NCBI RefSeq assembly: GCF_035634955.1
Contig: NZ_DASQBZ010000022.1
Location: forward strand, 100,730-164,729
Reading direction: 5' to 3'
DNA length: 64,000 nt
Source of the DNA: Variovorax sp.
Lineage (GTDB): Bacteria; Pseudomonadota; Gammaproteobacteria; Burkholderiales; Burkholderiaceae_C
Under the pieces are notes generated by a model. It searched no databases and was not told the origin of the DNA. It saw only the letters and a list, made by a program, of their open reading frames with translations. Positions 1,072 to 59,323 of the stretch are shown here, one piece after another. Every line of letters starts with the position of its first letter. The stretch's first letter is position 1. A program made the translations under genes and the position numbers.

Positions 1072-1085
1072 GGCCGGTCAACGCC

Positions 1086-9333: not shown

Positions 9334-10370
9334 GGGGTGGCCGCCGCGACGCGCCGGGTCAACTCGTCGCTGCTGGGCAGCCGCAGGCCCAGGCTGCGCG
9401 CCACGTTGCCGTTGACGCTGACCGTCGACGGCCGGGCCGCCTCCACCAGCAAGGCCTCGTCCGGGCCGGCCACCAGCCGGCGCCCCAGCGCCTGTGCCTG
9501 CCGCGCCATCTGCGCCGGGCCGCACAGCGCGGACGCCAACGCGCCGGAGCGAACCATCGCGTCGCTGGCGCCGAACACCGGCACGCCGGCGCCGGCGGCC
9601 GCACGCAACACCGCGGCAGTGGCGGCGGCGTCGTCGCCGATGGCGTCGGGCAGCAACAGCAGGGCATCGCTGGCGGGCAGCACGTCACGCAGCGCGGGGC
9701 CGATGGCCTGCACGTCGGCGGCCGTGGCCACGTTCAGTGTCCAGGCGCTGCCCGCGGCCTGCTCCAGCGCCTGCACCAGCGGCTGCGACTGCGCCGCCGC
9801 CAGCACGCCCAGGCGGCGCCCCTGCGGCAGCGCCGCGGCGACCAGCCTCAGTTGCGCCGCCATGGAAGGGTCGCGCAGCAGCACGGCCACGCGCCGGCCG
9901 GCGCGGTGCAGGCCGGGGCTGGACTTGAGTTGCTCGTACTCGAGCTGGCTGAGCATGGCCAGCAGCAGCGGGTCGGCGCCGTCGCGCTCGACCGCCGAGC
10001 GCGCCGCTTCCGCACCGACCGCCACCGTCGTCGCCGCGCCGGCCGGGGCCGTGGCGGGTGCGATCCGGCCGCGGGTCCGCACGCCGGCATTCGCGGCCTC
10101 CTGGCCGGTCTCGTTGTCGGGCGCGAGCACGACCGCGGCTGCGGTGGTGCCGGCGCCGTCCAGCCGTATCACGCGGAAGTCGCCGCCCGGCTCCTCGAGC
10201 GTTCGCAGCTGGCGCACGAACTCGTCGTCGGCCGCGCCGCCGGCGGTCAGCACGGTCACGCGCGCCGATGCCGCCTGCGCCAGGCCAGGCGGCACGCCGG
10301 TCAGGATGAGCAGCACGGCGACGAGTGCCCGCAGGGCACCGGCGACGGTCCGCACGCTTTCGAGAAGCAT
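9330..10370 (-). CDS. Periplasmic ABC-type substrate-binding-like protein
   Basis: Signal peptide. C-terminal half 'DALLLLPDAIG..VPVFGASDAMVRSGALAS..VSVNGNVARSLGLRLP' resembles the ABC_sub_bind family. Stop overlaps the kinase 1 start. Confidence 0.7.
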   Translation of the reverse strand: MLLESVRTVAGALRALVAVLLILTGVPPGLAQAASARVTVLTAGGAADDEFVRQLRTLEEPGGDFRVIRLDGAGTTAAAVVLAPDNETGQEAANAGVRTRGRIAPATAPAGAATTVAVGAEAARSAVERDGADPLLLAMLSQLEYEQLKSSPGLHRAGRRVAVLLRDPSMAAQLRLVAAALPQGRRLGVLAAAQSQPLVQALEQAAGSAWTLNVATAADVQAIGPALRDVLPASDALLLLPDAIGDDAAATAAVLRAAAGAGVPVFGASDAMVRSGALASALCGPAQMARQAQALGRRLVAGPDEALLVEAARPSTVSVNGNVARSLGLRLPSSDELTRRVAAATP

Positions 10371-10467
10371 GAAGGTTCACCGCGGTGAGGATCGCCTGAC
10401 TGTAGGGACGCGGCTGGGTTCGCGCGATAAGGCGGAGGGCTTATGTCGCGTGCGTGGCGGCCCTGCG

Positions 10468-10500
10468 GGCATGCGCGCTATGCCGATCGGCATAGCTCAC
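10468..10500. promoter_or_regulatory. Dyad element GGCAT-N7-ATGCCG overlapping a perfect 20-bp palindrome (10477-10496)
   Basis: GGCATGCGCGCTATGCCG at 10468-10485 and GCTATGCCGATCGGCATAGC at 10477-10496, in the gap upstream of the SBP-kinase 1-GT operon. Near-identical element at 60777-60794. Confidence 0.55.
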
Positions 10501-10538
10501 GGGGATGAGGGGCGCGCCGCACGTCCCCGGAATCCGGT

Positions 10539-12446
10539 TCAGGCCGGTATGCGCAGCGCCGCCAGCTGCGCGCCGATGGCCTGGCGCAGCGCCCTCGGCG
10601 AGACCGGTTTGTAGAGCACCATCACGCCGGCCTGGGCGACTTCGCGCAGGCGGTCCGGCTTGGTCTCGCCGGTGACCAGCAGCCGCGCGGTGCCCGCGCC
10701 GATGCCGCGCGGGTGCTTCTCCAGCGCGGCCAGCACGTCCAGCCCGTTGTCGCCGCCTTGCAGCAGCAGGTCGGAGACCACCGCATCGGGCGGCGCGGCC
10801 CACTGGTCGGCCAGCGCCAGCGCCTCGGCGCGCGACTGCGCGGCCATGACCTCCATGCCCCAGTTCGTCAGCACGACCTGCAGGCCTTCGAGGATGGTGC
10901 GCTCGTCGTCGATCACCAGCACCCGCACGCCGGCCAGGTCGCCGGGCATCGGATCCGCCGGCGCCAGCGCCGCCGGCTCCGACGGTTGCGCATCGGCCAC
11001 CGGTTCGACCGCGCGCACCAGCATCCGCACGCGGGTGCCGCGGCCGGGCACCGAGGCGAGGTCGACGCGCGTGTTGAGCAGCGCCGTCAGCCGCTTGACG
11101 GTCGACAGCCCCAGGCCCATGCCGCGCGGCGAGCCGCTCTTGCGCTGCGGATCGATCTGGAAGAATTCCTCGAACACCCGGGCCTGGTGCTGCGGCGCGA
11201 TGCCCACGCCGGTGTCCCACACCTCGATGCGCACGCCGCGCCCGCGCCGGCGCGCCCCGACCAGGATGCCGCCTTCGTTCGTGTGGCGCAGCGAGTTCGA
11301 CACCAGGTTGTTGAGGATGCGCGAGAGCATCACGTAGTCGCAGCGCACCCAGAGGTCGGTCTTGCGCACCACCAGGCGCAGGCCCTGCTGCTCGGCCACG
11401 TTGCGGAAGTTGCGGCTGATCTCGTCGAACAGCCGGTCCAGCGGGAAGTCGGACCATTGCGGCTGCAGCACCCCGGCGTCGAGCTGCGACAGGTTCAGCA
11501 GTTCGGAGAACAGGCGGTCCAGAGAGTCCACGCATTCGCGGATGTGGCCGATGCGCGCCAGGCGCACCGGGTCGGTCTCGCCGTTGGCCAGGCCGTCGGA
11601 GAACAGGGTGAGCGCATGCAGCGGCTGGCGCAGGTCGTGGCTGGCGGCCGCCAGCAGCCTTGTCTTGGCCTGGCTCGCCACCTCGAGCTGCTGGTTCTTG
11701 CGGGCCAGCTCGGCGGTGGCCTCGCCAATGCGGCTTTGCAGCATCCGCCGGCTTTCTGCCAGCGCCATGGCCGCCTGGTTGAAGCCGTGCTGCAGGCGCC
11801 GGACCTCGGCGGTGCCGGCCACCGCCACCTGGGCATCCTCGCCGGCGCCGAGGCGGTCGACCGCCTCGCCCAGGCGCCGGATCGGTGCGCTGATGCGGCG
11901 CGCCGCCCACCAGCCGGCGAGCCCGACGCCGGCCAGGATGGCGCCGAGCACCAGCAGCACGTTGAGGAAGACGGCCTTGCGCGCAACGGTGACTTCGTCG
12001 AGGCTGATCTCCACCATCACCATGCCGCGGTTGGCGCCGTTGTCGCCGGTGATGGGCGAGTACACGCTCAGGCCCTCGCCGCGCCGCATGTCCGACGTCT
12101 GCGCGTCGGCCAGGATCTCGCCGTCGCTGGTGCGGATCTGCACCTGGTGGATGTGCGGCTGCGAGGCGCCGGCCTGCACCGTGCGCAGCAGGGCGCGCCG
12201 GTCCATCTGCGCCAGCGGCCCCTGCGCCAGGGAGGCGACCTGCAGCGCCACCGCCTGCGCGCTGGTGCGCATCAGTTCGGTCACGTTGGCCAGGTGCTGG
12301 CGCGTCAGGACCACGATGGCGCCGGCGGTGGCCAGCACCGCCGGCAGCACCGCCAGCAGCACCAGCTGCTGCGCCAGCGACAGCCGCGGCAGGCGTTGCA
12401 ACAGGCGCGTTGTGGGCGCGGCCGGCGCATTGGAAGAAGATGCCAT
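10539..12446 (-). CDS. Hybrid sensor histidine kinase 2 (2 TM, HAMP, HisKA, HATPase, REC)
   Basis: 'SHDLRQPLHAL', 'NNLVSNSLRH', 'DTGVGI', 'GMGLGL', receiver 'LVIDDE..VVSDLLL..LYKPV'. Same architecture as kinase 1. Confidence 0.92.
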   Translation of the reverse strand: MASSSNAPAAPTTRLLQRLPRLSLAQQLVLLAVLPAVLATAGAIVVLTRQHLANVTELMRTSAQAVALQVASLAQGPLAQMDRRALLRTVQAGASQPHIHQVQIRTSDGEILADAQTSDMRRGEGLSVYSPITGDNGANRGMVMVEISLDEVTVARKAVFLNVLLVLGAILAGVGLAGWWAARRISAPIRRLGEAVDRLGAGEDAQVAVAGTAEVRRLQHGFNQAAMALAESRRMLQSRIGEATAELARKNQQLEVASQAKTRLLAAASHDLRQPLHALTLFSDGLANGETDPVRLARIGHIRECVDSLDRLFSELLNLSQLDAGVLQPQWSDFPLDRLFDEISRNFRNVAEQQGLRLVVRKTDLWVRCDYVMLSRILNNLVSNSLRHTNEGGILVGARRRGRGVRIEVWDTGVGIAPQHQARVFEEFFQIDPQRKSGSPRGMGLGLSTVKRLTALLNTRVDLASVPGRGTRVRMLVRAVEPVADAQPSEPAALAPADPMPGDLAGVRVLVIDDERTILEGLQVVLTNWGMEVMAAQSRAEALALADQWAAPPDAVVSDLLLQGGDNGLDVLAALEKHPRGIGAGTARLLVTGETKPDRLREVAQAGVMVLYKPVSPRALRQAIGAQLAALRIPA

Positions 12447-20564: not shown

Positions 20565-21281
20565 ATGAAGCGTGAACAATCGCCCGCGCGCGTCGAGGCG
20601 CATCCGTTGCCCGGCTGGTGGGGCAAGCTGCCGGGCATGGGCGACTTCGCCCACCGGCGGCTGCCGGACGAGTTTCGCCACGCCTGGGACCATTGGCTGC
20701 AGGCCGGGCTGCTGCAACTGCGCGCGCGCCACGCCGACTGGACCGGGCGCTACCTGTCGGCGCCGCTGTGGTGCTTCATGCTGGGCGACGGCGTGATCGG
20801 CGCCGGCGCCTGGATGGGCGTGCTGATGCCCTCGGTGGACGCCGTCGGCCGCTACTTCCCGTTCACGGTGGCCGACGCCATGGGGCCGGGCCCGGCCAGG
20901 CTGCATGGGCCAATGCTGGCGCACGCCCGCCACTGGCTGGAGCGGGCCGCGCAATGCGCCATCGACGGACTGGAGCAGGACCTGGACGCGCTGCGTTTCG
21001 ACGCGCTGGTGCTGCAGCGCTTCGGCGACGGTGCGGGCACAGGCGCGGCCCCGGGCGAACCGCCATTGCCGGGCGACGCGGCCGATGGCGAGGGCGGCGA
21101 CGATGGCGCGCAGGACGCGGGCGAGCCGATCGGGCTGGCCCTGCCCGAGTTCGGCCAGTCGCTGTGGTTCACCGATCCGGCGGCGCGCGGCGGCCAGGGC
21201 ATGAGCACCCTGGGACTGCCGCAGGACGAGCAATTCGACGCGCTGTTCGGCTTTCCGGCCGGCGACGTGGCGGACCAATAG
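20565..21281 (+). CDS. tagF: T6SS-associated TagF
   Basis: 'GWWGKLPGMGDF', 'PSVDAVGRYFP'. Confidence 0.9.
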   Translation: MKREQSPARVEAHPLPGWWGKLPGMGDFAHRRLPDEFRHAWDHWLQAGLLQLRARHADWTGRYLSAPLWCFMLGDGVIGAGAWMGVLMPSVDAVGRYFPFTVADAMGPGPARLHGPMLAHARHWLERAAQCAIDGLEQDLDALRFDALVLQRFGDGAGTGAAPGEPPLPGDAADGEGGDDGAQDAGEPIGLALPEFGQSLWFTDPAARGGQGMSTLGLPQDEQFDALFGFPAGDVADQ

Positions 21282-21292
21282 CGGAACCGGTC

Positions 21293-23176
21293 ATGCACGA
21301 CGGCCCATTCCCGCACGACGAAACGGACGCGACGCGCATCGCCGGCGCGCCGGCCCCGGCGCAGGACGGTGCCGGCCTGCTGCCCGTCGGCAGCCGCCTG
21401 GCCGAATTCGAGCTGACCCGCGTGGTCGGGCAGGGCGGCTTCGGCGTGGTCTACGAGGCGTGGGACACCGACCTCGAGCGCGTGGTCGCGATCAAGGAGT
21501 ACCTGCCGGTGTCGCTGTCCACCCGCCAGGGCGACGGCACGGTGATGCCGCTGTCCGAGCGCACGCGCGAGACGTTCGACCTGGGCATGCGCAGCTTCAT
21601 CAACGAGGCGCGGCTGCTGGCGCAGTTCGACCACCCCTCGCTGCTGAAGGTGCTGCGCTTCTGGCAGGAAAGGGGCACCGCCTACATGGCGATGCCGTTC
21701 TACCGCGGCCAGACCCTGCGCCAGGCGCTGGGCGGGCAGCGCGACGGCGGCGCGGGTGAAGCCTGGCTCATGGACATCCTGGACGGTGTGACGCAGGCGC
21801 TGGCCGTCATGCACGCGGCCAACTGCTATCACCGCGACATCGCGCCGGACAACATCATCCTGCTGGAAGATTCGGGCCGTCCTGTGCTGCTCGACTTCGG
21901 CGCGGCGCGTCGCGTCATCAGCGACAAGACGCAGGCCATCACGGTCATCCTCAAGCCGGGCTACGCGCCGGTCGAGCAATACGCCGAGATGCCCGACATG
22001 GCGCAGGGCGCCTGGACCGACGTCTATGCGCTGGCGGCGGTGATGCACGTGGCCGTGACCGGCCGGCCGCCGCCGCCTTCGGTGGCGCGCATGCTCAACG
22101 ACAGCTACCTGCCGCTGGCCGCCGACGAAGGACTGCGCACGCGCTACAGCGCGCGCCTGCTGTCGGCGATCGATGCGGGACTGGGCGTGCGTCCGCAGGC
22201 GCGCCCGCAGTCCATGGCCGAGCTGCGCGGCCTGCTGGGGCTGGAACCCGGCGACGTGCCGCGCCGCGTGCCGGCGGGCGACGGCGACGACGACCGGACG
22301 GTGATCCTGCCCCGCGCAACGCCGGGCGGCGGCCCCGCGGCTGCCCGCGCGCCGGCGGGGCGCGGGCGCACCGCGGCCGCGCTGGCCGTGCTCGCGCTGC
22401 TGGGCATCGGCGGCGCGTGGTGGTGGATGCAGCAACGCGGCGACGGCGTGCCGACGGCGAACGGCCCGGCGCCTGTCGCGGCAACGCCCGGCGTCGGCGC
22501 GCCAGCGCCGTCGATGCCGGACGCCGCGCCTGCCGGGCCTTCGCCAACCCCTGCGCCAAGCGCGGCGCTGGCGCCGGTGCCCGCGCCGCCCCCGGTCGCG
22601 CAAGCCGCGCCGCCCGCCGCACCGGCGCCGGAAGCAGCGCCGCCGCCGCCGGTCGCGCCGCGCGCGGTGACGCCGCTCGAATCGCTGCAGTCGCTCGCGC
22701 GCGGTGCCACTGCCGGCTTCGACGTGACGGCGCGGCCGGCCAAGGCGGAGGTGAACATCGGCAAGGACGCGCTGGGGTTCGACCTGCGCAGCAACCGGGC
22801 GGGCTTCGTCTACGTGTTCCTGCTGTCCTCGGGCAACGAGTTGTTCCTGCTGTTCCCGAACCTGCTGGACAAGTACAACAGGATCACGCCGAACACCACG
22901 CTCACGCTGCCGCGCGCATCCTGGCCCATGAATTCGGGCGGGCCGCCCGGCAGCAACGAGTTCGCCGTGCTGGTGAGCGAGCACGAGCGCGATTTCTCCG
23001 GCACCGGCGTCATCACCGACGGTGTCTTTCCGCAGTTTCCGTTGCCCGCCCTGGCGGCGCTGGAGGCCGTGCGCGGCACCGGCCCCGCGCCGCTGCTCGG
23101 GCGGGCGGTGTGCGCGCCCGGCACCCCCTGCCGGGATGCCTATGGCGTTGGTCGATTCAAGATCGTCGAGAAGTAA
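21293..23176 (+). CDS. ppkA: Membrane Ser/Thr kinase (PpkA-like) with Pro/Ala linker and C-terminal DUF4384-like domain
   Basis: 'GQGGFGVVY', 'VAIKEY', 'HRDIAPDNI', 'DFG', 'GYAPVEQY'. TM 'AAALAVLALLGIGGAWWW'. C-terminal 'GFVYVFLLSSGNELFLLFPN..N'. Confidence 0.85.
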   Translation: MHDGPFPHDETDATRIAGAPAPAQDGAGLLPVGSRLAEFELTRVVGQGGFGVVYEAWDTDLERVVAIKEYLPVSLSTRQGDGTVMPLSERTRETFDLGMRSFINEARLLAQFDHPSLLKVLRFWQERGTAYMAMPFYRGQTLRQALGGQRDGGAGEAWLMDILDGVTQALAVMHAANCYHRDIAPDNIILLEDSGRPVLLDFGAARRVISDKTQAITVILKPGYAPVEQYAEMPDMAQGAWTDVYALAAVMHVAVTGRPPPPSVARMLNDSYLPLAADEGLRTRYSARLLSAIDAGLGVRPQARPQSMAELRGLLGLEPGDVPRRVPAGDGDDDRTVILPRATPGGGPAAARAPAGRGRTAAALAVLALLGIGGAWWWMQQRGDGVPTANGPAPVAATPGVGAPAPSMPDAAPAGPSPTPAPSAALAPVPAPPPVAQAAPPAAPAPEAAPPPPVAPRAVTPLESLQSLARGATAGFDVTARPAKAEVNIGKDALGFDLRSNRAGFVYVFLLSSGNELFLLFPNLLDKYNRITPNTTLTLPRASWPMNSGGPPGSNEFAVLVSEHERDFSGTGVITDGVFPQFPLPALAALEAVRGTGPAPLLGRAVCAPGTPCRDAYGVGRFKIVEK

Positions 23177-23239
23177 TCGTCTGCGCCAGGTGAAGGCCGG
23201 CCATGCGGACGACCTTCGGATTCGACAAGGAGGTCTCGC

Positions 23240-24898
23240 ATGAACAGCCTTTCGCCACCGCCGCCGGCCGCCGCTTCCGCCGTCCGGAAGGCGGCGCTGG
23301 CCGTGCTGCTCGCCGGCCTGGCCGGGTGCGCCGGCATGCCGCCATCCGGCGCGCCAGCCGCCCCGGACGCCGCCGCCACGCCCGCCGCGGCGCCGGCCCC
23401 GGCGACCCCACCGCCGCCGGCCCCGATCAGCCTCGACGACCGCGCGCCCGCGCGCCCGGCTGCGGGCGCCTCGGCCGGCCCGGGCGCCAGCGTGGCCGGA
23501 CAGTCGCGCACCTTCTCGACCAGCGTGGCCACCTACACCTCGGTCGGCTACGACAAGCTGCCCGGCTGGGTGCAGGACGATTTCTCCCAGACCTGGCCGG
23601 CCTTCCTGACCAGCTGCCAGGTGCTCGACCGGCGCGGCGAGGCGTGGCGCAGCATCTGCGGGCGCGCACGCGCGGTCGACAGCCGCAACGACGCGGCCAT
23701 CCGCAACTTCTTCGAATCCGAGTTCTCCGCCTACCAGATCCGCGACGACGACCGCCGCACCGACGGCGTGGTCACCGGCTACTTCGAACCCGAACTCGCG
23801 GGCAGCCGCAACTACGCGCCGCCGTTCATCTACCCGGTGTACGGCCAGCCGCAGGACATGCTGTTCCTGGACGCGCGCAAGATTCCCGCCGGCGCCAGCA
23901 GCGTGCCGGCCCGGCTGCAGGGCAACCAGGTGATCCCGCAGGCCGGCCTGTCGACGCGCGACCTGGGCGCCCCCGGCATCTACGTGCTGGAGCTGTCGGA
24001 CGTGACCCGCGACACGCTCGATCGCAAGGTCCGGCTGCGCGCCGAGGGCCGGCGCCTGCTGCCCTACTACACGCGCCAGGAGATCGAGGCGCGCGGCGCG
24101 CCCAACGCCAGGGTGCTGGCCTTCGTGGACAACGCGATGGCGCTGTACGAGATGCAGATCCAGGGCTCGGGCCGCATCCGCCTCAAGGACGGCGAGGTGA
24201 TCCGCGTCTCGTACGCCGAGCAGAACGGGCAGCCCTTCCGGCCCACGCTGGCGAAGAACGCCAAGGGCAAGAGCAAGACCGCGGTGCGCACCCGCGGCGG
24301 TGCGGTCGAGCTGGTGCTGGACGACGATGACGACGATCTCCAGGCCGGCGACACCGACACCGGCAGCGTGCGCGTGCGCGGCTTCACGCTGGCCCGCCCG
24401 GCCGTGATGGGCGCGGTGGCGGTGCCGGGCCAGCGCACCACGGCCGCGGCCACCGGCAGCGGCATCCAGGACCCGAGCTACGTCTTCTTCAAGGAAGGCC
24501 AGTCCGGAGCCGGCGGTCCGGTCGGGGCGTTCGGCGTGCCGCTGGAGCCGGGGCGCTCGATCGCGGTGGACCCGCGCGCCACGCCGCTGGGCTACCCGGT
24601 GTACATCTCCACCCGCGAGCCGGTGGGCAACAAGCCCATGCAGCGCCTGACGGTGGCGCAGGACACCGGCGGCGCCATCCGCGGCGCGGTGCGGGCCGAC
24701 TATTTCTTCGGCAACGGCACCGAGGCCGCCGCGCAGGCGCGGCGCATGAAGGAGCGCGGCCAGTTGTGGATCCTGCTGCCGCGCGGACTGCCGGTGGCGG
24801 CGGCCGCGTCCGGCGGCATCCGCACCCGGGGCGGCGCGGCCGGCGCAAGCCTGCCGCAATGCCTGGTCGAGGAGGAGGACCTGTGCGTCGACGACTGA
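23240..24898 (+). CDS. mltA: MltA-family lytic transglycosylase lipoprotein with insertions
   Basis: Lipobox 'LAGLAGC', 'VTGYFEP', 'IQGSGRI', 'DPSYVFF', 'SIAVDP..PLG', catalytic 'AQDTGGAIRG..RADYFFG'. Confidence 0.9.
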   Translation: MNSLSPPPPAAASAVRKAALAVLLAGLAGCAGMPPSGAPAAPDAAATPAAAPAPATPPPPAPISLDDRAPARPAAGASAGPGASVAGQSRTFSTSVATYTSVGYDKLPGWVQDDFSQTWPAFLTSCQVLDRRGEAWRSICGRARAVDSRNDAAIRNFFESEFSAYQIRDDDRRTDGVVTGYFEPELAGSRNYAPPFIYPVYGQPQDMLFLDARKIPAGASSVPARLQGNQVIPQAGLSTRDLGAPGIYVLELSDVTRDTLDRKVRLRAEGRRLLPYYTRQEIEARGAPNARVLAFVDNAMALYEMQIQGSGRIRLKDGEVIRVSYAEQNGQPFRPTLAKNAKGKSKTAVRTRGGAVELVLDDDDDDLQAGDTDTGSVRVRGFTLARPAVMGAVAVPGQRTTAAATGSGIQDPSYVFFKEGQSGAGGPVGAFGVPLEPGRSIAVDPRATPLGYPVYISTREPVGNKPMQRLTVAQDTGGAIRGAVRADYFFGNGTEAAAQARRMKERGQLWILLPRGLPVAAAASGGIRTRGGAAGASLPQCLVEEEDLCVDD

Positions 24899-24923
24899 AC
24901 ACGGCGCCGCGCCGCTGATTCCC

Positions 24924-25712
24924 ATGCAAGACACCCTGTCCCTCGACGAGAGCGGCGAACTGGTCCGCCTCTGGCGGCGCCGGCAGCAGCTGTCGCCCCA
25001 AGAGATGGGGCGCATGTACCGCATCGTGGGCGAGGCGCTACGCACCTGCAACCCGCCCGAGCTCAAGGTGCTGGGCGAGGGGCGGCAGGAGCTGGTGGCC
25101 CAGTTCATCTACGTGAAGGTGCTGCGGCTGGACGCCGATGCCCAGGACGTGGGCGCCGAGCCGGGCGAGGCCGACGGCGACGGCGGGGCCGGCGAGGGCG
25201 CGGGCAGCGCGCCATCCAGTGCCTACGCCCTGTGCGCCTACTTCCGCCGCTACCTGATCGACTGCACCCGCGCCAGCAGCTTCCGGCGGCGGCTGTCGAT
25301 CGGCGACCAGGTCAGCGAGGCGCAGCTCGAGACGCAGCTGGGCAGCCAGCCTGGCCCGGCGGACGACAGTCTGGCCGAACACGGCCTGTCGGACGAGGCG
25401 GTGCAGCAGGCGGCGCGCCGATTCATCGCCGGCCTGGGCGAGCCCGAGCGGCTGCTGCTGTGCGAAGGCTTCGGCCGGGAGATGCCCGGCGGGCTGTCGG
25501 GCGTGGCGGCGCGCCATGCGATCGCGTCCTACCACTACCGCGCCGGACGGCTGGGCCTGGTGCACCGGCGCGAGGCGCTGCCGGCCGACTATGCCCGCAC
25601 CGAACTCGGGGGCTGGATCCAGGGCACGCTGGGCATCGCCATCGAGCCGGACAACATGCCCGCGATCCTGCGGGTCTTCAAAATCCTGGGGGCTGAGGCG
25701 TCTTGCGTGTAG
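24924..25712 (+). CDS. Divergent ECF-like sigma factor
   Basis: Region-2-like 'ELVAQFIYVKVL' and 'AYFRRYLIDCTR'. Region-4-like 'FIAGLGEPERLLL...LSGVAARHAIASYHYRAGRLG'. Followed by a single-TM partner gene. Confidence 0.5.
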   Translation: MQDTLSLDESGELVRLWRRRQQLSPQEMGRMYRIVGEALRTCNPPELKVLGEGRQELVAQFIYVKVLRLDADAQDVGAEPGEADGDGGAGEGAGSAPSSAYALCAYFRRYLIDCTRASSFRRRLSIGDQVSEAQLETQLGSQPGPADDSLAEHGLSDEAVQQAARRFIAGLGEPERLLLCEGFGREMPGGLSGVAARHAIASYHYRAGRLGLVHRREALPADYARTELGGWIQGTLGIAIEPDNMPAILRVFKILGAEASCV

Positions 25713-25736
25713 CGCCGCATCACCACAGGACCGAGT

Positions 25737-26921
25737 ATGCCCATCGAACTATGGCCTCCGCTTCACCTCATCCGCAGTCAGCTGGAACCGGCCTCGCCGG
25801 TGCCGGGCGGCGAGCCGGTGCGGATGGCCGGCGTCGATGCGGACGGCGCGGCGGCGCGCGCGGCCATGCCGGCCGACCTGCTGCTGCCGCTGACCGAGCT
25901 GGCGCGCCGGCGCGAGGCGCTGGCCGCGCGGGCGTTCGGCGCGCGCTGGACGCCGGGGCGCCTTGTCGGCGTGCTGCTGGATGGCCGCCTGCTGGGCGTG
26001 CTGCTCGACCGCCAGGCGCCCGGCGGCGCGTGGCACGGCTTCATGGCCGCCGGCGAGGCCGACTGGGCCGGTCCGCACGACGTGCTGCTCGAGCCTGCCG
26101 ATGAACCCTTCGAGCCGCTGTTCGGAATGATCCAGGCCTGGAACCCGGTCACCCTGATGCCCGCGCCGCAATGGCTGGCGCGGGTGCAGGGCGAGGTTTC
26201 GGCCACGCGGCTGGCCGCCGTCCGCGCGGTGCACGACGAGCATGCGGCCGGCCACGTGCCGGACATCGCGTGCGAGCCCGGGCGCATCGCCCTGCGCACG
26301 ACCGGCGGGGGCGCGTTCAGCGTGCTCAGCGGCACCCCGCTCGCCCCGGACGACGAGCGCGGCGCCTACCAGCGGCTCTACCGCGACGCGGCCGCGCGCC
26401 TGGTCGCCGCCAGCCGCCGCCTGGCCGGTGCGGACGGCACCGGCGCCGCGCCGGCCCGACATGCCGGCCCGGCCGGTGGCGCGGCGGCCGGGGCCGTCGA
26501 CCGGACGGCGGATGCGGCGCCGGCCGCGGCGCCACCGCGCGCGGCGGACGACGGGCCCTGGCAACGCCTGCGGCGCTGGCTGGGCGCCGACGGCTGGGTC
26601 CGGCCCGCGTTCGCGCTGCTGGCGCTGGTGGTGGTCGTGCAGAACCTCGTGCTGCCCGGCGGCGCAGGCGACGCGGACGACGCGCTGCGCTTTCGCGGCC
26701 TGCCCGGAGCGGCGACCGACGCGCCCACCGCCGACCTGGCGCTCAGCTTCCGACCGGACGTGCGCATGGCCGACGCGCAGCGCCTGCTGCAATCGGTGCA
26801 GGCCGAGGTGGTGGCCGGGCCGGATGCGCGCGGGACCTGGTACCTGCGCGTGCCCGACGTGACCGCCAGCCGCGCCGCGCTGGCCGCCTCGCCGCTGGTC
26901 GGCGCGGTCGGGCCGCCCTGA
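25737..26921 (+). CDS. Single-pass membrane protein, putative anti-sigma factor
   Basis: RBS AGGA upstream. Cytoplasmic N-domain, A/P/G linker, TM 'PAFALLALVVVVQNLVL', 'LRFRG', and a C-terminal module 'LSFRPD..AQRLLQSVQAEVVAGPDARGTWYLRV' like that of protease-associated anti-sigma proteins. Confidence 0.55.
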   Translation: MPIELWPPLHLIRSQLEPASPVPGGEPVRMAGVDADGAAARAAMPADLLLPLTELARRREALAARAFGARWTPGRLVGVLLDGRLLGVLLDRQAPGGAWHGFMAAGEADWAGPHDVLLEPADEPFEPLFGMIQAWNPVTLMPAPQWLARVQGEVSATRLAAVRAVHDEHAAGHVPDIACEPGRIALRTTGGGAFSVLSGTPLAPDDERGAYQRLYRDAAARLVAASRRLAGADGTGAAPARHAGPAGGAAAGAVDRTADAAPAAAPPRAADDGPWQRLRRWLGADGWVRPAFALLALVVVVQNLVLPGGAGDADDALRFRGLPGAATDAPTADLALSFRPDVRMADAQRLLQSVQAEVVAGPDARGTWYLRVPDVTASRAALAASPLVGAVGPP

Positions 26922-26942
26922 CGCGCCGGAAGGGATTCGCCC

Positions 26943-28979
26943 ATGCACGCGCTGCTGCCACCGCCCCGCTGGATGCAGGCCCTGCTGCTGGGTGCGGCAC
27001 TGTTGCTGGCCGGCGGCCAGATACAGGCGGCACATGCGGCGCGGCGCGCGCTGCTGGTGGGCGTGTCGGAACTGGCCCACCAGAGCCCTTCGCTGTGGCT
27101 GCAGGCGCCGCGCAACGACGTGCTCCTGATGCGCGACGCGCTGCAGCGCCAGGGATTCGCGCCGGGCGAGATCGCCGTGCTGGCCGACGGCATCGACGGC
27201 GCCGCGCTGCCGGATTCGCGCGGCATCCACGACGCCCTGGCCGACCTGCTCGCCCGCTCGGGCAGCGGCGACTTCGTGCTGCTGTACTTCTCCGGCCACG
27301 GCACGCGCGTGCGCGACCGCGCCAAGGCGTACGCCGAGCCCGACGGCCTGGCCGAGAACTTCCTGGCGCGTGACGCGCTGCTGCCTCCCGGCGGGGGCGA
27401 CATGCCGCTGGCCGGCGGCCTGCGCGACGTCGACGTCGACGGCTGGATCCGCGCCTTCCTGGCGCGCGGCGTGTTCGTCTGGTCGGTGTTCGACACCTGC
27501 GCGGCCACCTCCATGACGCGCGGCGTGCGCGCCCTGCCGTCCGGCCCGGCAGACGCCGACATCGACGACGTCGACGACCCGGTGCGGTTTCGCGGCATCC
27601 GCCTCGACCAGCTGGCGCAGGCGCCGGCCGGCACGCCGCTGCCGGCCGACCTGGCGCCGCCGCCCTGGCCGCCGGTGCCGCGGGCGCGCTACGTCGCCTT
27701 CTTCGCGTCGGAAAGCCACCAGGTGACGCCCGAACTGCGCCTGCCGCGCGGCGATCGCAGCGCGCGACCGCAGGGACTGCTGACCTGGGCCGTCGCGCAG
27801 GCGATGGCGCGGCGGCCGGCCACCTTCCGCGAACTCTTCAACCAGGTGGTCTCGCTGCAGGCCCCGGTGATCGGCGAGCTGGCGCCGCGCTTTCCCACGC
27901 GCGAACTGCCGTCGCCGGTGGCCGAGGGCAACCTGGACCTGCCGCTGTACGGCGCCGCGCCGGCGCCGCTGACCACGCGGCCGGCCTGGCCGGCGCGGCG
28001 CGCGGGCGGCCAGCTGCTGCTGGCGGCGGGGTTGCTCGATGGCCTGGAGCCCGGCCAGCCGGTGCGGGTGCTGGCCACGCTGGAAGGCGGCGCGCAGCGC
28101 AGCGCCACGCTTGCGTTGACGGAGGTCGACCTCGGCACCGCGCAACTGCCGGTGCCGACCGCGCTGGCCGCGCTCGGCGACGACGCGCTGTGGAGCGTGG
28201 TGCCGTCGGCCGATTCGCCGTCCGCCCAGTTGCGGGTGGGTGGCGGCGTGGCGCTGCCGGCAGCGATCAGCCTGGCCTGGCCGGCCGCGCTCCGCGCCGC
28301 GAGCGCCGGCGAAGCGGCCGACGTGACGCTCGTGCGCACGGCCGACGGCGTGCAGGCCCGCATCGTCTCGCCCGACCTGGCCGCGCTGATCAACGAGCAG
28401 GCCGTGCCGCTGGCGGACCAGGACGCGTTGCGCACCTACCTGCAGGCGCTGGCAGAACTCAAGTGGCTCGGCCGCCTGCAGCGGCTCGCGCGGGGCCGGC
28501 AGCTCGACGGCTTCGATGCCACCGTCGAGGTCTGGTCCGGCAGCCGGCTGCTGCGCAGCGAGCCGGCCGAGGCCGGCAGCGGCGCGCCACTCGAAGCCGG
28601 CGAACGGCTGAGCCTGTCGGTGCGCAACGCCAGCGGCCAGTCGCTGGATCTGGTGGTGGTCGGCATCGATGCCGATGGCGCCATCCGGCAGGTGTATCCG
28701 CCGGCCATGAGCGAGACGAATCGCTTCGAGCGCGGCAGCCGCGAGCGGCCGGCCATGCAGCGCTTCGAGCTGCCGTGGCTGGACCCGGCGCGCGGCGGCC
28801 GCCTGCTGGTGGTGGCCGCGCCGGCCGCGCCTTTTTCCGCGCCGCGCCTGTTCGGCGCGGCCGCGCCGGATGCGACGCCGCCCGCCGGCATGCGGCTGCG
28901 CGGCACACGGCCGGCGGCGCCCGACGCGCGGCGCCAGCTGTACGGCGCGCTGGCCGCATGGCCCGCGGGCGCGCGATGA
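26943..28979 (+). CDS. Exported caspase-like peptidase (family C14, ortho/metacaspase type) with C-terminal DUF4384-like domain
   Basis: Signal peptide. 'ALLVGV..RNDV', catalytic His in 'YFSGHG' (27297-27299), catalytic Cys in 'FDTC' (27498-27500). C-terminal 'AGERLSLSVRN..DLVVVGIDADGAIRQVYP'. Confidence 0.88.
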   Translation: MHALLPPPRWMQALLLGAALLLAGGQIQAAHAARRALLVGVSELAHQSPSLWLQAPRNDVLLMRDALQRQGFAPGEIAVLADGIDGAALPDSRGIHDALADLLARSGSGDFVLLYFSGHGTRVRDRAKAYAEPDGLAENFLARDALLPPGGGDMPLAGGLRDVDVDGWIRAFLARGVFVWSVFDTCAATSMTRGVRALPSGPADADIDDVDDPVRFRGIRLDQLAQAPAGTPLPADLAPPPWPPVPRARYVAFFASESHQVTPELRLPRGDRSARPQGLLTWAVAQAMARRPATFRELFNQVVSLQAPVIGELAPRFPTRELPSPVAEGNLDLPLYGAAPAPLTTRPAWPARRAGGQLLLAAGLLDGLEPGQPVRVLATLEGGAQRSATLALTEVDLGTAQLPVPTALAALGDDALWSVVPSADSPSAQLRVGGGVALPAAISLAWPAALRAASAGEAADVTLVRTADGVQARIVSPDLAALINEQAVPLADQDALRTYLQALAELKWLGRLQRLARGRQLDGFDATVEVWSGSRLLRSEPAEAGSGAPLEAGERLSLSVRNASGQSLDLVVVGIDADGAIRQVYPPAMSETNRFERGSRERPAMQRFELPWLDPARGGRLLVVAAPAAPFSAPRLFGAAAPDATPPAGMRLRGTRPAAPDARRQLYGALAAWPAGAR

Positions 28980-29004
28980 ACGATCCCCACGCACGGAGCA
29001 CGCC

Positions 29005-29562
29005 ATGAACCTGAACGCGGATGCACAACTGGATGCGGGCGAGGTGCAACGCCTGCTCGACCACATGTCGCAGGAGACCGGCAACGACTACCTGATGCTG
29101 ATCGAGAGCAAGGGCAGCGCGGTCGAAGGCGAATCCAGCCGCGCCTTCGAGGACGGCAAGCGGCGCATGCAGATCGGCGGCTACAGCTACGTGGCCGCGG
29201 TGCAGACCCCGCCGGGCACCGCCAAGGGCCAGGTGCGCATGAGCGCCGTCATGGTCGTGCGCGAATGCGATGCGGCCACGGCCACCATCGCCAGTCTGCT
29301 GAAGAACCAGGAGAGCGACCTGAAGGTGCAGATCTCCGTGTTCAAGGCCAGCGGCGACAGCTCCAGCGACCAGCAGCCGATGCTGGAGTTCGTGCTGGAG
29401 AACGCGCGCATCACCACGCAGGCGATTCTCACCGGCGGCAATCCGCGCCGGCCTTGCGAGATCATCTGCCTGACGCCGCGCAAGCTGGAGATCCGCTCGG
29501 CGCCGCAGCAGCAGACGGGCCTGCGCGGTGCGGTGCGCACCTGCACGTTGACCCAGCCCTAG
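29005..29562 (+). CDS. Divergent Hcp-like protein with N-terminal extension
   Basis: 'YLMLIESKGSAVEGES', 'VMVVRECDAATATI', 'VFKASG..QPMLEFVLENARIT', 'EIICLTPRKLEIRSAPQ' follow the Hcp pattern. RBS GGAG upstream. Confidence 0.7.
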   Translation: MNLNADAQLDAGEVQRLLDHMSQETGNDYLMLIESKGSAVEGESSRAFEDGKRRMQIGGYSYVAAVQTPPGTAKGQVRMSAVMVVRECDAATATIASLLKNQESDLKVQISVFKASGDSSSDQQPMLEFVLENARITTQAILTGGNPRRPCEIICLTPRKLEIRSAPQQQTGLRGAVRTCTLTQP

Positions 29563-29729: not shown

Positions 29730-30560
29730 ATGACCCGCTCCGCAGAGATGCTCCAGGCGGCCGACCCGGCCGGTGCGCTCCAGGCCCTGACCGACGAGAT
29801 CCGCGCCAGGCCGGCCGACGCGAAGCTGCGCGTGTTCATGGCGCAACTGCTGTGCGTACTCGGCCAGTGGGAGCGCGCAATCAACCAGCTGACCGTGGCC
29901 GCCGAGATGGACGCGCTGGCGGTGCCGATGAAGCAGGTCTACGGCGACGCGATCCGCTGCGAGAGCCTGCGCGCCGATGTCTTTGCCGGCCGGCGCACGC
30001 CGATGATCTTCGGCGAGCCGGACCCGTGGCTCGCCCTGCTCATCGAATCGCTGCTGCGCCTCGGCGCGGGCGAGCCCGACATGGCCGAGGACCTGCGCGT
30101 GCGTGCCTTCGATGCCGCGCCGGCGAGTCCCGGCACCATCGACGGCGAGGCTTTCCAATGGCTGGCCGATGCCGACATGCGCCTGGGCCCGGTGCTGGAG
30201 GCGTTCGTCAACGGACGCTACTACTGGGTGCCGTTCGCGCGCCTGGCGCAGGTGCGGCTGGAGCCGCCGGAGGATCTGCGCGACATGGTGTGGCTGCCGG
30301 CGCACCTGGTCTTCGAGAACGGCGGCGAGACGCTGGCGCTGATCCCGTCGCGCTACGAAGGCAGCGAGCATGCCGCCGACGGCGCGGTGCAGCTGGCGCG
30401 CAAGACCGAGTGGCGCGCGCTGCGCCCCGATGTCTGGGCCGGCCTGGGCCAGCGCATGTGGAGCAGCGACATCGGCGACGAAGGCAGCGAGCACCCGATG
30501 CTGCAGGTGCGCGCGATCGACTTCGCGCCGCAGGCCGGGGCGGGGCAGGCGGATGCCTGA
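29730..30560 (+). CDS. tagJ: T6SS accessory TagJ (ImpE)
   Basis: 'QLLCVLGQWERAINQL', 'WLADADMRLGPVLE', 'YYWVPF', 'LIPSRY', 'GLGQR'. Confidence 0.93.
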   Translation: MTRSAEMLQAADPAGALQALTDEIRARPADAKLRVFMAQLLCVLGQWERAINQLTVAAEMDALAVPMKQVYGDAIRCESLRADVFAGRRTPMIFGEPDPWLALLIESLLRLGAGEPDMAEDLRVRAFDAAPASPGTIDGEAFQWLADADMRLGPVLEAFVNGRYYWVPFARLAQVRLEPPEDLRDMVWLPAHLVFENGGETLALIPSRYEGSEHAADGAVQLARKTEWRALRPDVWAGLGQRMWSSDIGDEGSEHPMLQVRAIDFAPQAGAGQADA

Positions 30561-36866: not shown

Positions 36867-38246
36867 ATGGCTGCCGGATCCGAGTTCCACCCGCCCAACC
36901 TCGAGCCGTCTCCCGCGGCGCCGGTGCGCCTCGGGCTGCCCGAGGCCATGGGCCTGGCGCTCGGCCTGCACCAGGCCGGCCGGCTCGACGATGCGCAGGT
37001 CCTGTACCAGCGCGTGCTGGCGGCCGAGCCCGAGCATGCGGACGCGCTGCACTTCATGGGCGTGCTGACGCACCAGCGCGGCCGCAGCGACGAGGCGGCC
37101 ACGCTGATCCGCCGCTCCATCGCCCACCAGCCCGGCATCGCCGACTGGCACAACAACCTGGGCAACGTGCTGCTGGAGTCCGGCCGCGTCGACGAGGCGG
37201 GCGCGGCCTATGAAGAGGCGGCCCGCCTGGCGCCCGAACGCGCCGACGTGCACAACAACCTGGGCGTCCTGCGGCGCGAGCAGAAGCGCCCGGAGGAATC
37301 CGAGGCGGCCTACCGCCGCGCGATCGCGCTGGACCCGTCGTTCGTCGACGCCCACACCAACCTGGGCAACCTGCTGCACAGCCTGCACCGCAACGAGGCG
37401 GCGCTGATCAGCTATTGCGAGGCGCTGGCCCTGCGGCCGCAGAACGTGCGCGCGCGGCAGGCGCTGGGCATGGCGTACTACACGCTGGGCCGCTTCGAGG
37501 AAGCCACCCGCGTCTACGCCGACTGGCTGCGCGACGAGCCCGAAAGCCCGCAGGCGCGGCATCACCTGGCGGCATGCTCCGGCCGCGACGTGCCTGCGCG
37601 GGCCGCCGACGACTACGTGGCCGAAGTGTTCGACGGCTTTGCCGGCAGCTTCGACGCCAAGCTGGCGCACCTGCACTACCGCGCGCCGCAACTGCTGGAG
37701 CAGGAGGTGCGCCGGCGCCTGGGCCCGCCGCGCGCGGCCCTGGCGGTGCTCGACGCCGGCTGCGGCACCGGGTTGTGCGGCCCGCTCCTGCGGCCGTGGG
37801 CGCGCCGGCTGCAAGGGGTCGACCTGTCGGCCGGGATGCTTGCCAGGGCCGAGCCGCGCGGCGTGTACGACGGCCTGGAAAAGGCCGAGCTGACCGCCTG
37901 GATCGCCGCCGCCACCGCCGGCAGCTACGACCTGATCGTCTCGGCCGACACGCTGTGCTACTTCGGCGACCTGGCCGAGGTCTGCCGCGCCTGCGCCTCG
38001 GCCCTGACGCCCGGCGGCTGGCTGATGTTCACCGTCGAGGCGCTCGACGACGATGCCGCCGAGCCGGTGCGGCTCAATCCGCACGGGCGCTACGGCCACC
38101 GTGCCGACTACCTGCGCCAGGTGCTGGCGGGCGCCGGCCTGGGCGCAACCGAAGTGCAGGCGGCGCACCTGCGCACCGAGGGCGGACGGCCGGTGGCCGG
38201 CTGGCTGGTGTCGGCCTGCAAAGCCGGCGAGGCTGGATCGTCTTGA
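36867..38246 (+). CDS. TPR-repeat protein with C-terminal class I SAM-dependent methyltransferase
   Basis: TPRs ('WHNNLGNVL', 'HNNLGVL', 'HTNLGNLL'), 'YVAEVFDGFAGSFD', SAM motif 'VLDAGCGTGLCG'. Confidence 0.88.
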   Translation: MAAGSEFHPPNLEPSPAAPVRLGLPEAMGLALGLHQAGRLDDAQVLYQRVLAAEPEHADALHFMGVLTHQRGRSDEAATLIRRSIAHQPGIADWHNNLGNVLLESGRVDEAGAAYEEAARLAPERADVHNNLGVLRREQKRPEESEAAYRRAIALDPSFVDAHTNLGNLLHSLHRNEAALISYCEALALRPQNVRARQALGMAYYTLGRFEEATRVYADWLRDEPESPQARHHLAACSGRDVPARAADDYVAEVFDGFAGSFDAKLAHLHYRAPQLLEQEVRRRLGPPRAALAVLDAGCGTGLCGPLLRPWARRLQGVDLSAGMLARAEPRGVYDGLEKAELTAWIAAATAGSYDLIVSADTLCYFGDLAEVCRACASALTPGGWLMFTVEALDDDAAEPVRLNPHGRYGHRADYLRQVLAGAGLGATEVQAAHLRTEGGRPVAGWLVSACKAGEAGSS

Positions 38247-40710: not shown

Positions 40711-41193
40711 ATGAGTGGCAGAGACGCGTGTTTCGAACAGGGACTTGCGCACACGCCGGCGCCGATGCCGGCCCCGATGTGCATCGGCCGCCTGCTGGCG
40801 ATCGGCGACGAGGGGCGCACGCCGCTCGTGGTCTTCGAGGGACAGGCCGGCAGCGCCGCGCTGCCGGCGCGCAGCACCGTCGACCTGCGCGCCGAGCACG
40901 TCGGCGCGCAGGTGCTGCTGGCCTTCGCCGGCGAAGGCCGGTGCCCGGTGGTGACCGGCGTGCTGCGCGACAGCTTGCCGGCCTGGCCGGCGGCCGAGTT
41001 GCCGCCGGCGGTGAGCGTGGATGCGGACGGCCAGCGCCTGCTGGTCAGCGCCGGCGAGCAGCTGGTGCTGCGCTGCGGCAAGGCCAGCATCACGCTCACC
41101 CGCGCCGGCAAGGTGCTGATACAGGGCAGCTACGTGCTCAGCCGCTCGAGCGGGACGCACCGCATCAAGGGCGGCTCGGTCCAGATCAACTGA
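40711..41193 (+). CDS. DUF6484-like protein
   Basis: C-terminal 'LVLRCGKASITLTRAGKVLIQGSYVLSRSSGTHRIKGGSVQIN'. Position immediately after vgrG. Confidence 0.75.
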   Translation: MSGRDACFEQGLAHTPAPMPAPMCIGRLLAIGDEGRTPLVVFEGQAGSAALPARSTVDLRAEHVGAQVLLAFAGEGRCPVVTGVLRDSLPAWPAAELPPAVSVDADGQRLLVSAGEQLVLRCGKASITLTRAGKVLIQGSYVLSRSSGTHRIKGGSVQIN

Positions 41194-41223
41194 GCAGGCC
41201 GCCGGCGCAGGACCCGCATCGAC

Positions 41224-43412: not shown

Positions 43413-43413
43413 G

Positions 43414-44547: not shown

Positions 44548-44564
44548 GCAGGAGGATCCATGTC

Positions 44565-45449: not shown

Positions 45450-45460
45450 GACGGCGCGCA

Positions 45461-53768: not shown

Positions 53769-54251
53769 TCACACCTTCTTGTTCGCGGCAATATCCCAGC
53801 CGATGGTCTTGGCCGCGCCGCCGGCGCCCTTGGCATCCTGAGGCACGTATTCGTACTTGAACTTGCCGAAGTTCAGCGTGACGTTCTCGGTCAGGCGGTC
53901 CTCGCCGCCGCTGCCGCCGGTGCTCACCGACGAGACGATCAGGTCGTTGAGCGTGATCTTGATGTATTCCAGCGGAGTCTCGCCCGCCTTGCGCACCACC
54001 AGCGTCGCCTCCTCGATGTGCTTGCCGTTGCAGCAGGCCAGCAGCAGCGCATGGGAGGCCGAATCGATGTACTTGGTGAGCGACAGGTCCTGCACGTTCA
54101 CCTTGCCGGAGCCGGCGCCGCCGCCCATGTGCGCGGTGCCCGACTGCGACACGCCCCAGTTCCAGGCCAGGACGTCGATCTCCTTCTTGTGCTTGTCGTC
54201 GGCCGACTCGCCCTCGATGTCCTTGATCTTGATAAACATGTCTACGGCCAT
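53769..54251 (-). CDS. hcp: T6SS tube protein Hcp (TssD)
   Basis: 'MAVDMFIKIKDIEGESADDKHKKEIDVLAWNWG', 'QDLSLTKYIDSAS', 'ENVTLNFGK', 'GWDIAANK'. Confidence 0.97.
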   Translation of the reverse strand: MAVDMFIKIKDIEGESADDKHKKEIDVLAWNWGVSQSGTAHMGGGAGSGKVNVQDLSLTKYIDSASHALLLACCNGKHIEEATLVVRKAGETPLEYIKITLNDLIVSSVSTGGSGGEDRLTENVTLNFGKFKYEYVPQDAKGAGGAAKTIGWDIAANKKV

Positions 54252-59304: not shown

Positions 59305-59323
59305 GGCGGGGCCCCGGCGGCAG

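Follow-up and report, generated by a model that had tools for sequence, protein, structure and literature searches.

Within a 64,000-nucleotide stretch of a Variovorax contig (the window; G+C content 72%), six same-strand genes between tagF and tagJ of a type VI secretion system (T6SS) encode a Hanks-type kinase, an MltA-family lytic transglycosylase, a helical protein that we call U262, a protein with one transmembrane (TM) helix that we call U394, an exported caspase-like protease of the Peptidase_C14 family, and a divergent Hcp paralog (HcpL). By its proteins, the window belongs to the Variovorax lineage of Comamonadaceae. A first-pass annotation, read from the sequence letters and a list of open reading frames (ORFs) alone, had treated the six as one system. 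The computational follow-up presented here suggests that they are probably two things side by side: T6SS accessories (kinase, MltA and HcpL) and a trio made up of U262, U394 and the C14 protease. Genes were called by third-position G+C (GC3) analysis together with ORF listing, and the products were compared with Pfam and NCBIfam domain models, with PADLOC, and with sequences of the Protein Data Bank (PDB). The close packing described in the first pass is borne out, in that all six genes are intact, lie on the forward strand and are separated by gaps of 11-63 bp (Table 1).

GC3 analysis places these genes in a single long forward-strand run that extends from ~14.1 kb to 49.4 kb. By Pfam, the window holds a complete T6SS with 13 of 13 core genes, plus TagF, TagJ, Fha and a PP2C phosphatase. 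The forward strand encodes TssK, TssL (with an OmpA domain), TssM, TagF, TagJ, TssE, TssF, TssG, ClpV, VgrG, Fha and the phosphatase; the reverse strand encodes Hcp, TssC, TssB and TssA; and TssJ lies at 57799-58179. The presence of TagJ with TagF, a kinase, a phosphatase and Fha is a hallmark of H1/group-3 clusters, described for Xanthomonadales (PMC6653060), and the cluster in the window is of this H1/i3 type.

A scan of species-representative genomes recovered 198 loci that encode a U262 relative, and we read the synteny, as far as each contig extends, in the best 80 of the 198. These come from Variovorax, Xenophilus, Pseudacidovorax, Xylophilus and unnamed metagenome-assembled genomes. All 80 share the order TssL-TssM-TagF-kinase-MltA-U262-U394-caspase-HcpL-TagJ-TssE-TssF, and for that reason the six-gene arrangement is no product of chance. 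The conservation of U262 is on a par with that of the core T6SS genes (identities in Table 1). Since HcpL abuts TagJ in most relatives, all six lie within the operon of structural genes. One might still see here a neighbourhood of unrelated or decaying genes that share no function, as HcpL and TagF are fast-evolving and neither U262 nor U394 has a known domain. We regard this as extremely improbable: all ORFs are intact with a strong GC3 coding signal, the order holds across four genera, catalytic residues are conserved, and the layout of pair plus protease recurs at 25-45% identity.

Table 1. Features of the six-gene stretch and of the surrounding T6SS cluster (window coordinates), with identity to the window protein in the 80 related loci.
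Feature	Coordinates	Strand	Description	Identity in 80 loci
TagF	20565..21281	+	PF09867 TagF_N, 1.3e-39; left boundary; post-translational T6SS repressor	
Hanks-type Ser/Thr kinase	21293..23176	+	Pkinase 1.6e-25; TM aa 361-379; C-terminal periplasmic DUF4384 1.2e-12, 48 bits	56-84%
MltA-family lytic transglycosylase	23240..24898	+	PF03562 2.5e-30; PF06725 (3D) 5.2e-22; lipobox LAGC; DTGGAI; acidic insertion	64-84%
U262	24924..25712	+	predicted cytoplasmic, all-helical (AlphaFold); partner of U394; no family match	70-81%
U394	25737..26921	+	predicted cytoplasmic N-domain aa ~1-230, core 88-216; TM aa 288-306; ~90-aa periplasmic C-domain	44-68%
U394 TM helix VRPAFALLALVVVVQNLVL	26598..26654	+	Kyte-Doolittle 2.07 over 19 aa; conserved in clade orthologs	
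U394 R-F-R motif (aa 318-320)	26688..26696	+	periplasmic, juxtamembrane; candidate protease cut site	
Peptidase_C14, orthocaspase-like	26943..28979	+	signal peptide aa 1-32; middle domain; C-terminal domain	51-72%
HcpL, divergent Hcp paralog	29005..29562	+	PF05638 29.6 bits vs cut-off 23.5; TIGR03344 14.7 vs 58.9	33-77%
TagJ/ImpE	29730..30560	+	PF07024, 1.5e-42; right boundary	
Fha	46966-48549	+	PF20232 5.4e-59 and FHA domain	
PP2C phosphatase, PppA-like	48580-49350	+	PP2C_2 4.1e-13	
Canonical Hcp (TssD)	53769..54239	-	PF05638 4.4e-43	
Core T6SS proteins				70-92%

The trio recurs far from this clade. Among distant relatives of U262 (25-45% identity), whose contexts we read in metagenome contigs (loci L081-L109), a U394 homolog lies directly 3' of the U262 gene wherever the contig allows, with L088 as the only exception, and a 609-aa protein present on three contigs (P0368) is a natural fusion of U262 with U394. 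Save for L088, U262 and U394 are an obligate pair. Many of the distant loci also encode a caspase-fold protease within two genes of the pair. A C14-Sel1 protein is found upstream in L090-95, L096 and L097 and downstream in L101, while the neighbour is a CHAT-nSTAND1 protein in L100, a CHAT protein in L102 and a CHAT-NB-ARC-WD40 protein in L104. In L081-83 and L109 the neighbour is a protein of ~670 aa with 'hhhh-A-H-G' and 'hhhh-A-C' motifs ('AHG...AC') that are typical of CHAT/caspase active sites. Neither Pfam nor a thin-profile hhalign comparison identified this ~670-aa protein as CHAT, the latter being powerless in this case, since CHAT against C14 failed as well.

The two forms of U394 follow the two kinds of protease. 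A TM-type U394, in which the TM helix is followed by a domain of ~90 aa, is found in the window clade, in L090-97, L099, L101 and L105, and in the fusion protein; L081-83, L100, L102, L104 and L109 have a soluble U394 whose C-terminal region differs. Every C14 neighbour carries a signal peptide and is paired with a TM-type U394, and every CHAT or CHAT-like neighbour is without a signal peptide and is paired with a soluble one. Such a match of compartments would be expected of a protease whose target is the C-terminal part of U394. Recurrence at such low identity, together with matching compartments, supports the earlier view of protease, TM protein and helical protein as one functional unit.

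The same loci separate the trio from the other three genes. In the first pass, a lack of co-occurrence elsewhere had been named as grounds for giving up the proposed system; in our survey the caspase, U262 and U394 do occur together elsewhere, and the kinase, MltA and Hcp do not accompany them. The distant U262-U394 loci contain no T6SS, kinase, Fha or Hcp genes, and MltA is represented by one fragment, on the opposite strand, in L087. Because the trio recurs without T6SS, kinase or Fha, its core function is not T6SS-specific.

Several distant pairs lie near Cas2/Cas1, HamA, Uma2 or HNH nucleases (L081 2713-3991; the P0263 contig; L100 6568-7104; L105 12111-13117), which hints at a defence-island setting. 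In L081-83 and L109, a conserved gene of 133-135 aa precedes U262 (L081 4744-5145, L082 1527-1928, L083 97-498, L109 632-1039). Its product resembles PemK/MazF weakly (E 0.0026, below the cut-off) and carries an 'RPVLxV...ALPLTTK' motif; with U262, a soluble U394 and the ~670-aa CHAT-like protein, the gene may form a conflict cassette of four genes.

It is conceivable, then, that the trio is a module for conflict or defence that is lodged within the T6SS locus, and in which the protease senses damage and frees U262 as an effector or as the regulator of a regulon of its own, with no control of T6SS expression or firing. The company kept by the distant copies (CHAT-STAND/NB-ARC-WD40 proteins, an AAA_21 ATPase, HNH and Uma2 nucleases, the PemK-like gene, Cas1/Cas2 and HamA) is what such a module would lead one to expect. 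Unlike the usual hitch-hiking islands, however, the trio of the Variovorax clade is placed mid-operon, with tagF/ppkA on one side and tagJ/tssE on the other, unchanged in 80/80 loci and tightly packed in most relatives, and PADLOC has no model for U262 or U394. We consider this alternative improbable.

U394 has a single TM helix, as the first pass had it, and the positive-inside rule puts its N terminus in the cytoplasm, the sequence before the helix being Arg-rich and that after it acidic. The conserved part of the protein is the cytoplasmic N-domain, in which residues 88-216 share 45% identity with the L081 protein. U394 has no match in Pfam, NCBIfam, PADLOC or PDB. Its topology is that of a membrane anti-sigma factor (single-pass, N terminus inside, with a cytoplasmic domain, and encoded beside its partner). 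The earlier reading as an anti-sigma factor, in the classical sense, is not supported: no anti-sigma domain matches (ASD/ZAS, RskA, FecR and similar), the protein has a single Cys, and an HxxxCxxC motif is absent.

Just beyond the membrane, ~11 residues past the TM helix, U394 carries an R-[F/Y/L]-R motif, which reads R-F-R in the window. The dipeptide [F/Y/W]R is present in 68 of 74 clade orthologs, the sampled Pseudacidovorax and Xenophilus orthologs have R-L-R, and [Y/F]R is found in the distant TM-type homologs too. We propose R-F-R as the cut site because orthocaspases and metacaspases cleave after Arg or Lys (PMC6426788); it is a plausible site for an orthocaspase of that specificity.

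The adjacent protease is exported and has an intact catalytic dyad, in agreement with the first pass. In addition to its signal peptide it has His119 (nt 27297-27299) and Cys186 (nt 27498-27500), both invariant in an alignment of 12 sequences that includes two distant C14 proteins (L091 and L096); the FSGHG and FDTC contexts of the window protein align there with YAGHG and LDAC. The match to PF00656 Peptidase_C14 (36.8 bits vs a cut-off of 21.4) covers only the N-terminal part of the model (aa 34-133). The C-terminal domain scores 17.4 bits against DUF4384, below the cut-off of 27, and the NCBIfam model caspase_w_EACC1 is likewise below its cut-off.

U262 belongs to a family of 275 clusters at 50% identity, mostly of ~250 aa, recovered by an exhaustive profile search (E<=0.001), and it has no match in Pfam, NCBIfam, PADLOC or PDB sequences. 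The first pass had called it sigma-like. That label is not confirmed: there is no Sigma70 match and no sigma factor among the fold matches, and what is left is a weak profile similarity to the sigma-2 region of extracytoplasmic function (ECF) sigma factors. Pfam detects neither a sigma-2 domain (Sigma70_r2) nor a sigma-4 helix-turn-helix (HTH) domain, and the family profile found no sigma factor among PDB sequences. AlphaFold2 models are all helical, with a predicted local distance difference test (pLDDT) score of 68.9 that rose to 76.6 after four distant homologs were added.

The profile similarity comes from hhalign comparisons with a small alignment of ECF sigma factors, first four and then seven sequences, entered by hand. 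With four, the match was weak (probability 9%, P 0.0035) and co-linear over both domains; with seven, it was again weak (probability 25%, P 7.5e-4) and confined to the sigma-2 region (2.1-2.3), with a score of 30.8 vs a mean of 12.7 and a maximum of 19 for 40 column shuffles and 18.7 for the reversed template. By eye, 'F-R-N-Y-L-I-D-x-L-R' in U262 resembles sigma region 2.2, and the HTH-like 'I-A-S-Y-H-Y-K-A-x-K-L-G-I' (also given as 'IASYHYRAxxLG') resembles region 4.2. It is possible but unproven that U262 is a sigma factor. A Variovorax humicola ortholog (P0087) is named 'Sigma-70 family RNA polymerase sigma factor' in UniRef and hypothetical in other sources; our analysis did not reproduce the basis of this naming.

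Drawing on gene content, catalytic residues, membrane topology, the pairing and fusion of U262 with U394, the recurrent protease neighbours, the match of compartments and the conservation within the T6SS operon, we infer a binding of U262 by U394, a cleavage of U394 by the protease, a cue and an output. In this scheme the cytoplasmic N-domain of U394 would hold U262 inactive at the membrane. A periplasmic cue, such as envelope or cell-wall damage or an incoming attack, would activate the exported C14 protease, which would then cut the periplasmic part of U394, perhaps at the juxtamembrane R-F-R. Further degradation of U394 would free U262 into the cytoplasm, where, most likely as a transcription factor or a divergent sigma-like protein, it may turn on the T6SS or associated genes. 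A protease-gated release switch with a T6SS-related output is our best explanation for the trio, but a tentative one, to which we give somewhat less than an even chance. A bolder formulation is that U262, U394 and a caspase-fold protease make up a new and widely distributed protease-gated module of two new families, in a periplasmic form (C14 with TM-type U394) and a cytoplasmic form (CHAT/STAND with soluble U394), of which the periplasmic form serves as a T6SS trigger in the Variovorax clade. We offer this as possible and, on balance, somewhat doubtful.

A number of observations weigh against the switch. No Sigma70 Pfam model matches any of 67 diverse members of the U262 family at E<=1, and Foldseek against PDB, run with both AlphaFold2 models, returned no sigma factor among matches at E<=10, which is not a strong negative given that small helical domains are hard for Foldseek. 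U394 lacks an anti-sigma domain and a Zn motif. Pairs of U262 and U394 without a visible protease occur in L084-86, L105 and L098, and the compartment match amounts to few independent lineages, ~3 exported and 2-3 cytoplasmic. A DUF4384 domain common to the kinase, the caspase and a DotU-like protein was dropped as evidence, as neither BLASTP nor hhalign gave a significant result. Directly upstream of U262 there is no room for a promoter, and no conserved intergenic motif could be derived. Our search for RNA evidence found the window sequence in DNA metagenome runs only. Finally, the link from the output of the module to the T6SS is operon membership alone. Of the earlier idea that a periplasmic protease cleaves an anti-sigma factor and thereby frees a sigma factor, the unity of the trio is supported, while the identity of the sigma factor and the class of the anti-sigma factor are not.

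Caspase-fold proteases that gate the release of a sigma factor or regulator have precedents in DdvA/DdvS (PMC11506125), in Craspase/Csx30/CASP-sigma and CalpL/T/S (summarised in 10.1101/2023.06.23.546230), and in an EACC2-caspase with an ECF sigma factor (PMC8195603). DdvA/DdvS of Myxococcus xanthus shares with the proposed switch a periplasmic caspase-fold protease domain, a single-pass membrane protein and a cytoplasmic N-domain that holds a cytoplasmic partner, as well as the proposed order of events, in which a site-1 cut close to the membrane comes first and release second. In DdvA a periplasmic TPR-CHAT (TPR, tetratricopeptide repeat) is fused to the TM anti-sigma factor; a site-1 role has been proposed for it, and the RseP step is proven (PMC11506125). 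The protease in the window, by contrast, is a separate exported C14 protein. Moreover, the anti-sigma domain of DdvA is of the Zn-binding kind and DdvS is a genuine ECF sigma factor, two families to which U394 and U262 show no match, and the target of DdvA/DdvS is not a T6SS but genes of CRISPR and of CBASS (cyclic oligonucleotide-based antiphage signalling systems).

The same logic, release of a sigma-like regulator through proteolysis of its tether, is found in type III-E Craspase (Cas7-11 with the TPR-CHAT protein Csx29, and Csx30/Csx31/CASP-sigma), in CalpL/CalpT/CalpS and in a Haliangium gene set. The soluble U394 variants beside cytoplasmic CHAT proteins resemble this class of systems. 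These systems, however, are cytoplasmic, are triggered by CRISPR or cyclic nucleotides and have a recognisable Sigma-70 (10.1101/2023.06.23.546230). The Haliangium set (SAVED-CHAT/PCaspase/PCc-sigma/PCi/PCk) has, besides its recognisable Sigma-70, a CI-2-like inhibitor and cytoplasmic proteases (10.1101/2023.06.23.546230). In the window there is neither a Cas effector nor a SAVED domain nor an inhibitor like CI-2; neither SAVED nor CHAT matched any of the window genes scanned, and no sequence homology to Csx30, Csx31 or PCi is shown. Homology with this caspase, sigma, inhibitor and kinase set, which the first pass had brought in, is not supported, as U262 is not a Sigma70 protein and the C14 protease is exported; the likeness is one of logic only. 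The trio differs from known systems in its two family-less partners, its separate exported C14 protease, the absence of a CRISPR or cyclic-nucleotide sensor and its location in a T6SS operon. Neither a caspase nor an MltA-type gene appears in a 2026 review of the accessory genes of T6SSs, and we found no description of such a system in the literature searched for caspase, DUF4384 or Variovorax together with T6SS.

The kinase is intact, with VAIK, HRD and DFG motifs readable in its translation, and it is the only kinase of a T6SS cluster that also holds Fha, PP2C and TagF. The threonine phosphorylation pathway is established for the T6SS (PMC6653060, PMC5995506), and a Hanks kinase with a TM helix and a periplasmic domain in such a cluster has the make-up of its PpkA-type kinase, which the window protein probably is. 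The resemblance to the PpkA-PppA-Fha-TagF pathway (PMC6653060, PMC13584744) extends to the kinase, phosphatase, Fha and TagF genes and to the periplasmic sensor domain of the kinase. The first pass had instead likened it to the sigma kinase of the EcfK/PknS pair, and such control of the Xanthomonas citri T6SS is a real precedent, with regulators that include a membrane Hanks kinase in the variable region of an i3-type cluster (PMC13147305, PMC6653060). EcfK, however, is a true ECF sigma factor activated by phosphorylation, without a protease or anti-sigma factor, and the window kinase lies beside TagF in a cluster with Fha and PppA. Because Fha, the PP2C phosphatase and TagF are all in the cluster, PpkA is the simpler reading, and no sigma kinase is needed to explain the gene. 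The periplasmic domain of P. aeruginosa PpkA is a vWA domain; here it is DUF4384 instead.

A kinase of this type raises a further possibility for the trio, namely control at the post-translational level. The exported caspase could be a periplasmic regulator upstream of the PpkA-type kinase, as TagQRST is in P. aeruginosa and RtkS in Serratia, or could process a component of the membrane complex or the cell wall, with U262 and U394 as assembly or anchoring accessories instead of a switch of transcription. Kinase, Fha, PP2C and TagF are all present, kinase and caspase both face the periplasm and both match the DUF4384 model (the caspase below threshold), all of the genes are co-operonic with structural ones, and known T6SSs feed PpkA by varied periplasmic inputs (PMC6653060, PMC13584744). 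No homologs of TagQRST or RtkS were noted in the window. Against this possibility stand the recurrence of the trio in loci that lack a T6SS, a kinase and Fha, and the C-domains of kinase and caspase, which are not demonstrably homologous. We judge it unlikely.

MltA, too, is intact, with MltA and 3D domains above their cut-offs, the catalytic Asp motif DTGGAI and a visible lipobox. It is not an ortholog of E. coli MltA, since it scores 77 vs a cut-off of 242 with the NCBIfam equivalog NF008366. Assembly of a T6SS requires local cleavage of the cell wall, by MltE in enteroaggregative E. coli and by TagX in Acinetobacter (PMC13584744). By analogy with these peptidoglycan-cleaving enzymes, tied to insertion of the membrane complex, the window lipoprotein probably opens peptidoglycan for passage of the T6SS through the cell wall. 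The gene for MltE is a housekeeping gene located elsewhere, and TagX is an L,D-endopeptidase, whereas here an MltA-family enzyme is encoded in the cluster. We also considered MltA as a stand-in for a missing TssJ and rejected this, as TssJ is present.

The full circuit of the first pass went further: the kinase would phosphorylate the sigma factor, as PknS does EcfK, the caspase would cut the anti-sigma factor and also process MltA, and all six genes would form one system. They are co-linear and conserved together in the clade, and the X. citri precedent cited above is genuine. But U262 is not a recognisable ECF sigma factor; Fha, PppA and TagF explain the kinase without the circuit; kinase, MltA and Hcp-like genes do not accompany the trio elsewhere; and nothing ties the caspase to MltA. 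For processing of MltA by the caspase we found no evidence of any kind, and MltA does not travel with the trio in the distant loci. The circuit in this form appears very unlikely.

HcpL was correctly recognised as a variant Hcp: its Hcp domain is above the Pfam cut-off and it is 21% identical to the canonical Hcp. It is fast-evolving within the clade (33-77% identity) and lies on the strand opposite to tssA-tssB-tssC-hcp. Its position is what we take to be the slot of hcp1 before tagJ in H1-type clusters, as in the P. aeruginosa H1 layout. HcpL is most simply read as a retained, fast-evolving extra Hcp paralog; a role as the main tube protein was rejected in view of the canonical Hcp encoded in the window. 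The gap between HcpL and TagJ measures 167 bp in the window and is almost absent in most relatives, and L001, L002, L003 and L072 have 1.3-4.6 kb of extra DNA there. We found no promoter, terminator or footprint signal around HcpL-TagJ, and in most relatives the gap is too short for a promoter.

For only a handful of species is it known how T6SSs sense the right moment for production or firing. If the periplasmic form of the module does trigger the T6SS of the Variovorax clade, this would be the first type VI secretion system under caspase control, and periplasmic caspase signalling across the membrane would add a new type of input to T6SS regulation. Bacterial orthocaspases, the substrates of which are almost all unknown, would gain in U394 a concrete candidate substrate with a candidate cut site. 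The U262-U394 pair defines two uncharacterised families that are seemingly standard clients of caspase-fold proteases in conflict-type loci. It is tempting to see here an extension of the theme of Craspase, CalpL and DdvA, in which a protease frees a regulator, to non-CRISPR settings.

Other features of the window bear on the T6SS at large. A second, partial TssL/TssM-like pair (58204-60598, reverse strand) adjoins TssJ and TssA; it consists of a DotU-domain protein with a C-terminal DUF4384 below threshold (59324-60598, reverse) and a 391-aa protein with an IcmF-related N-terminal domain only (58204-59379, reverse). Between ClpV and VgrG, the T6SS operon includes an unusual accessory gene in which TPR repeats are fused to a class I methyltransferase (36867-38246, forward). 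An effector region follows 3' of VgrG (40711-46765, forward), with DUF6484 and DUF2169 among its domains; it encodes a PRK06147-like, ketoacyl-synthase-like protein (42615-43412), a PAAR-like/GHH2 HNH nuclease toxin (43426-44547), a 290-aa protein without matches that may be the immunity protein of this toxin (44577-45449), and a TIGR02270 family protein (45461-46765). Near the start of the window lies a two-partner secretion (TPS) pair (31-6434, forward) made up of a 1782-aa exoprotein with a TPS domain and a transporter of ShlB/FhaC type that the window edge truncates. The T6SS is flanked (7222-12401, reverse, and 60885-61592, forward) by two HAMP hybrid histidine kinases, an ATP-binding cassette (ABC)-type substrate-binding protein and a LuxR/GerE-type response regulator, and these may be conventional regulators of the T6SS.

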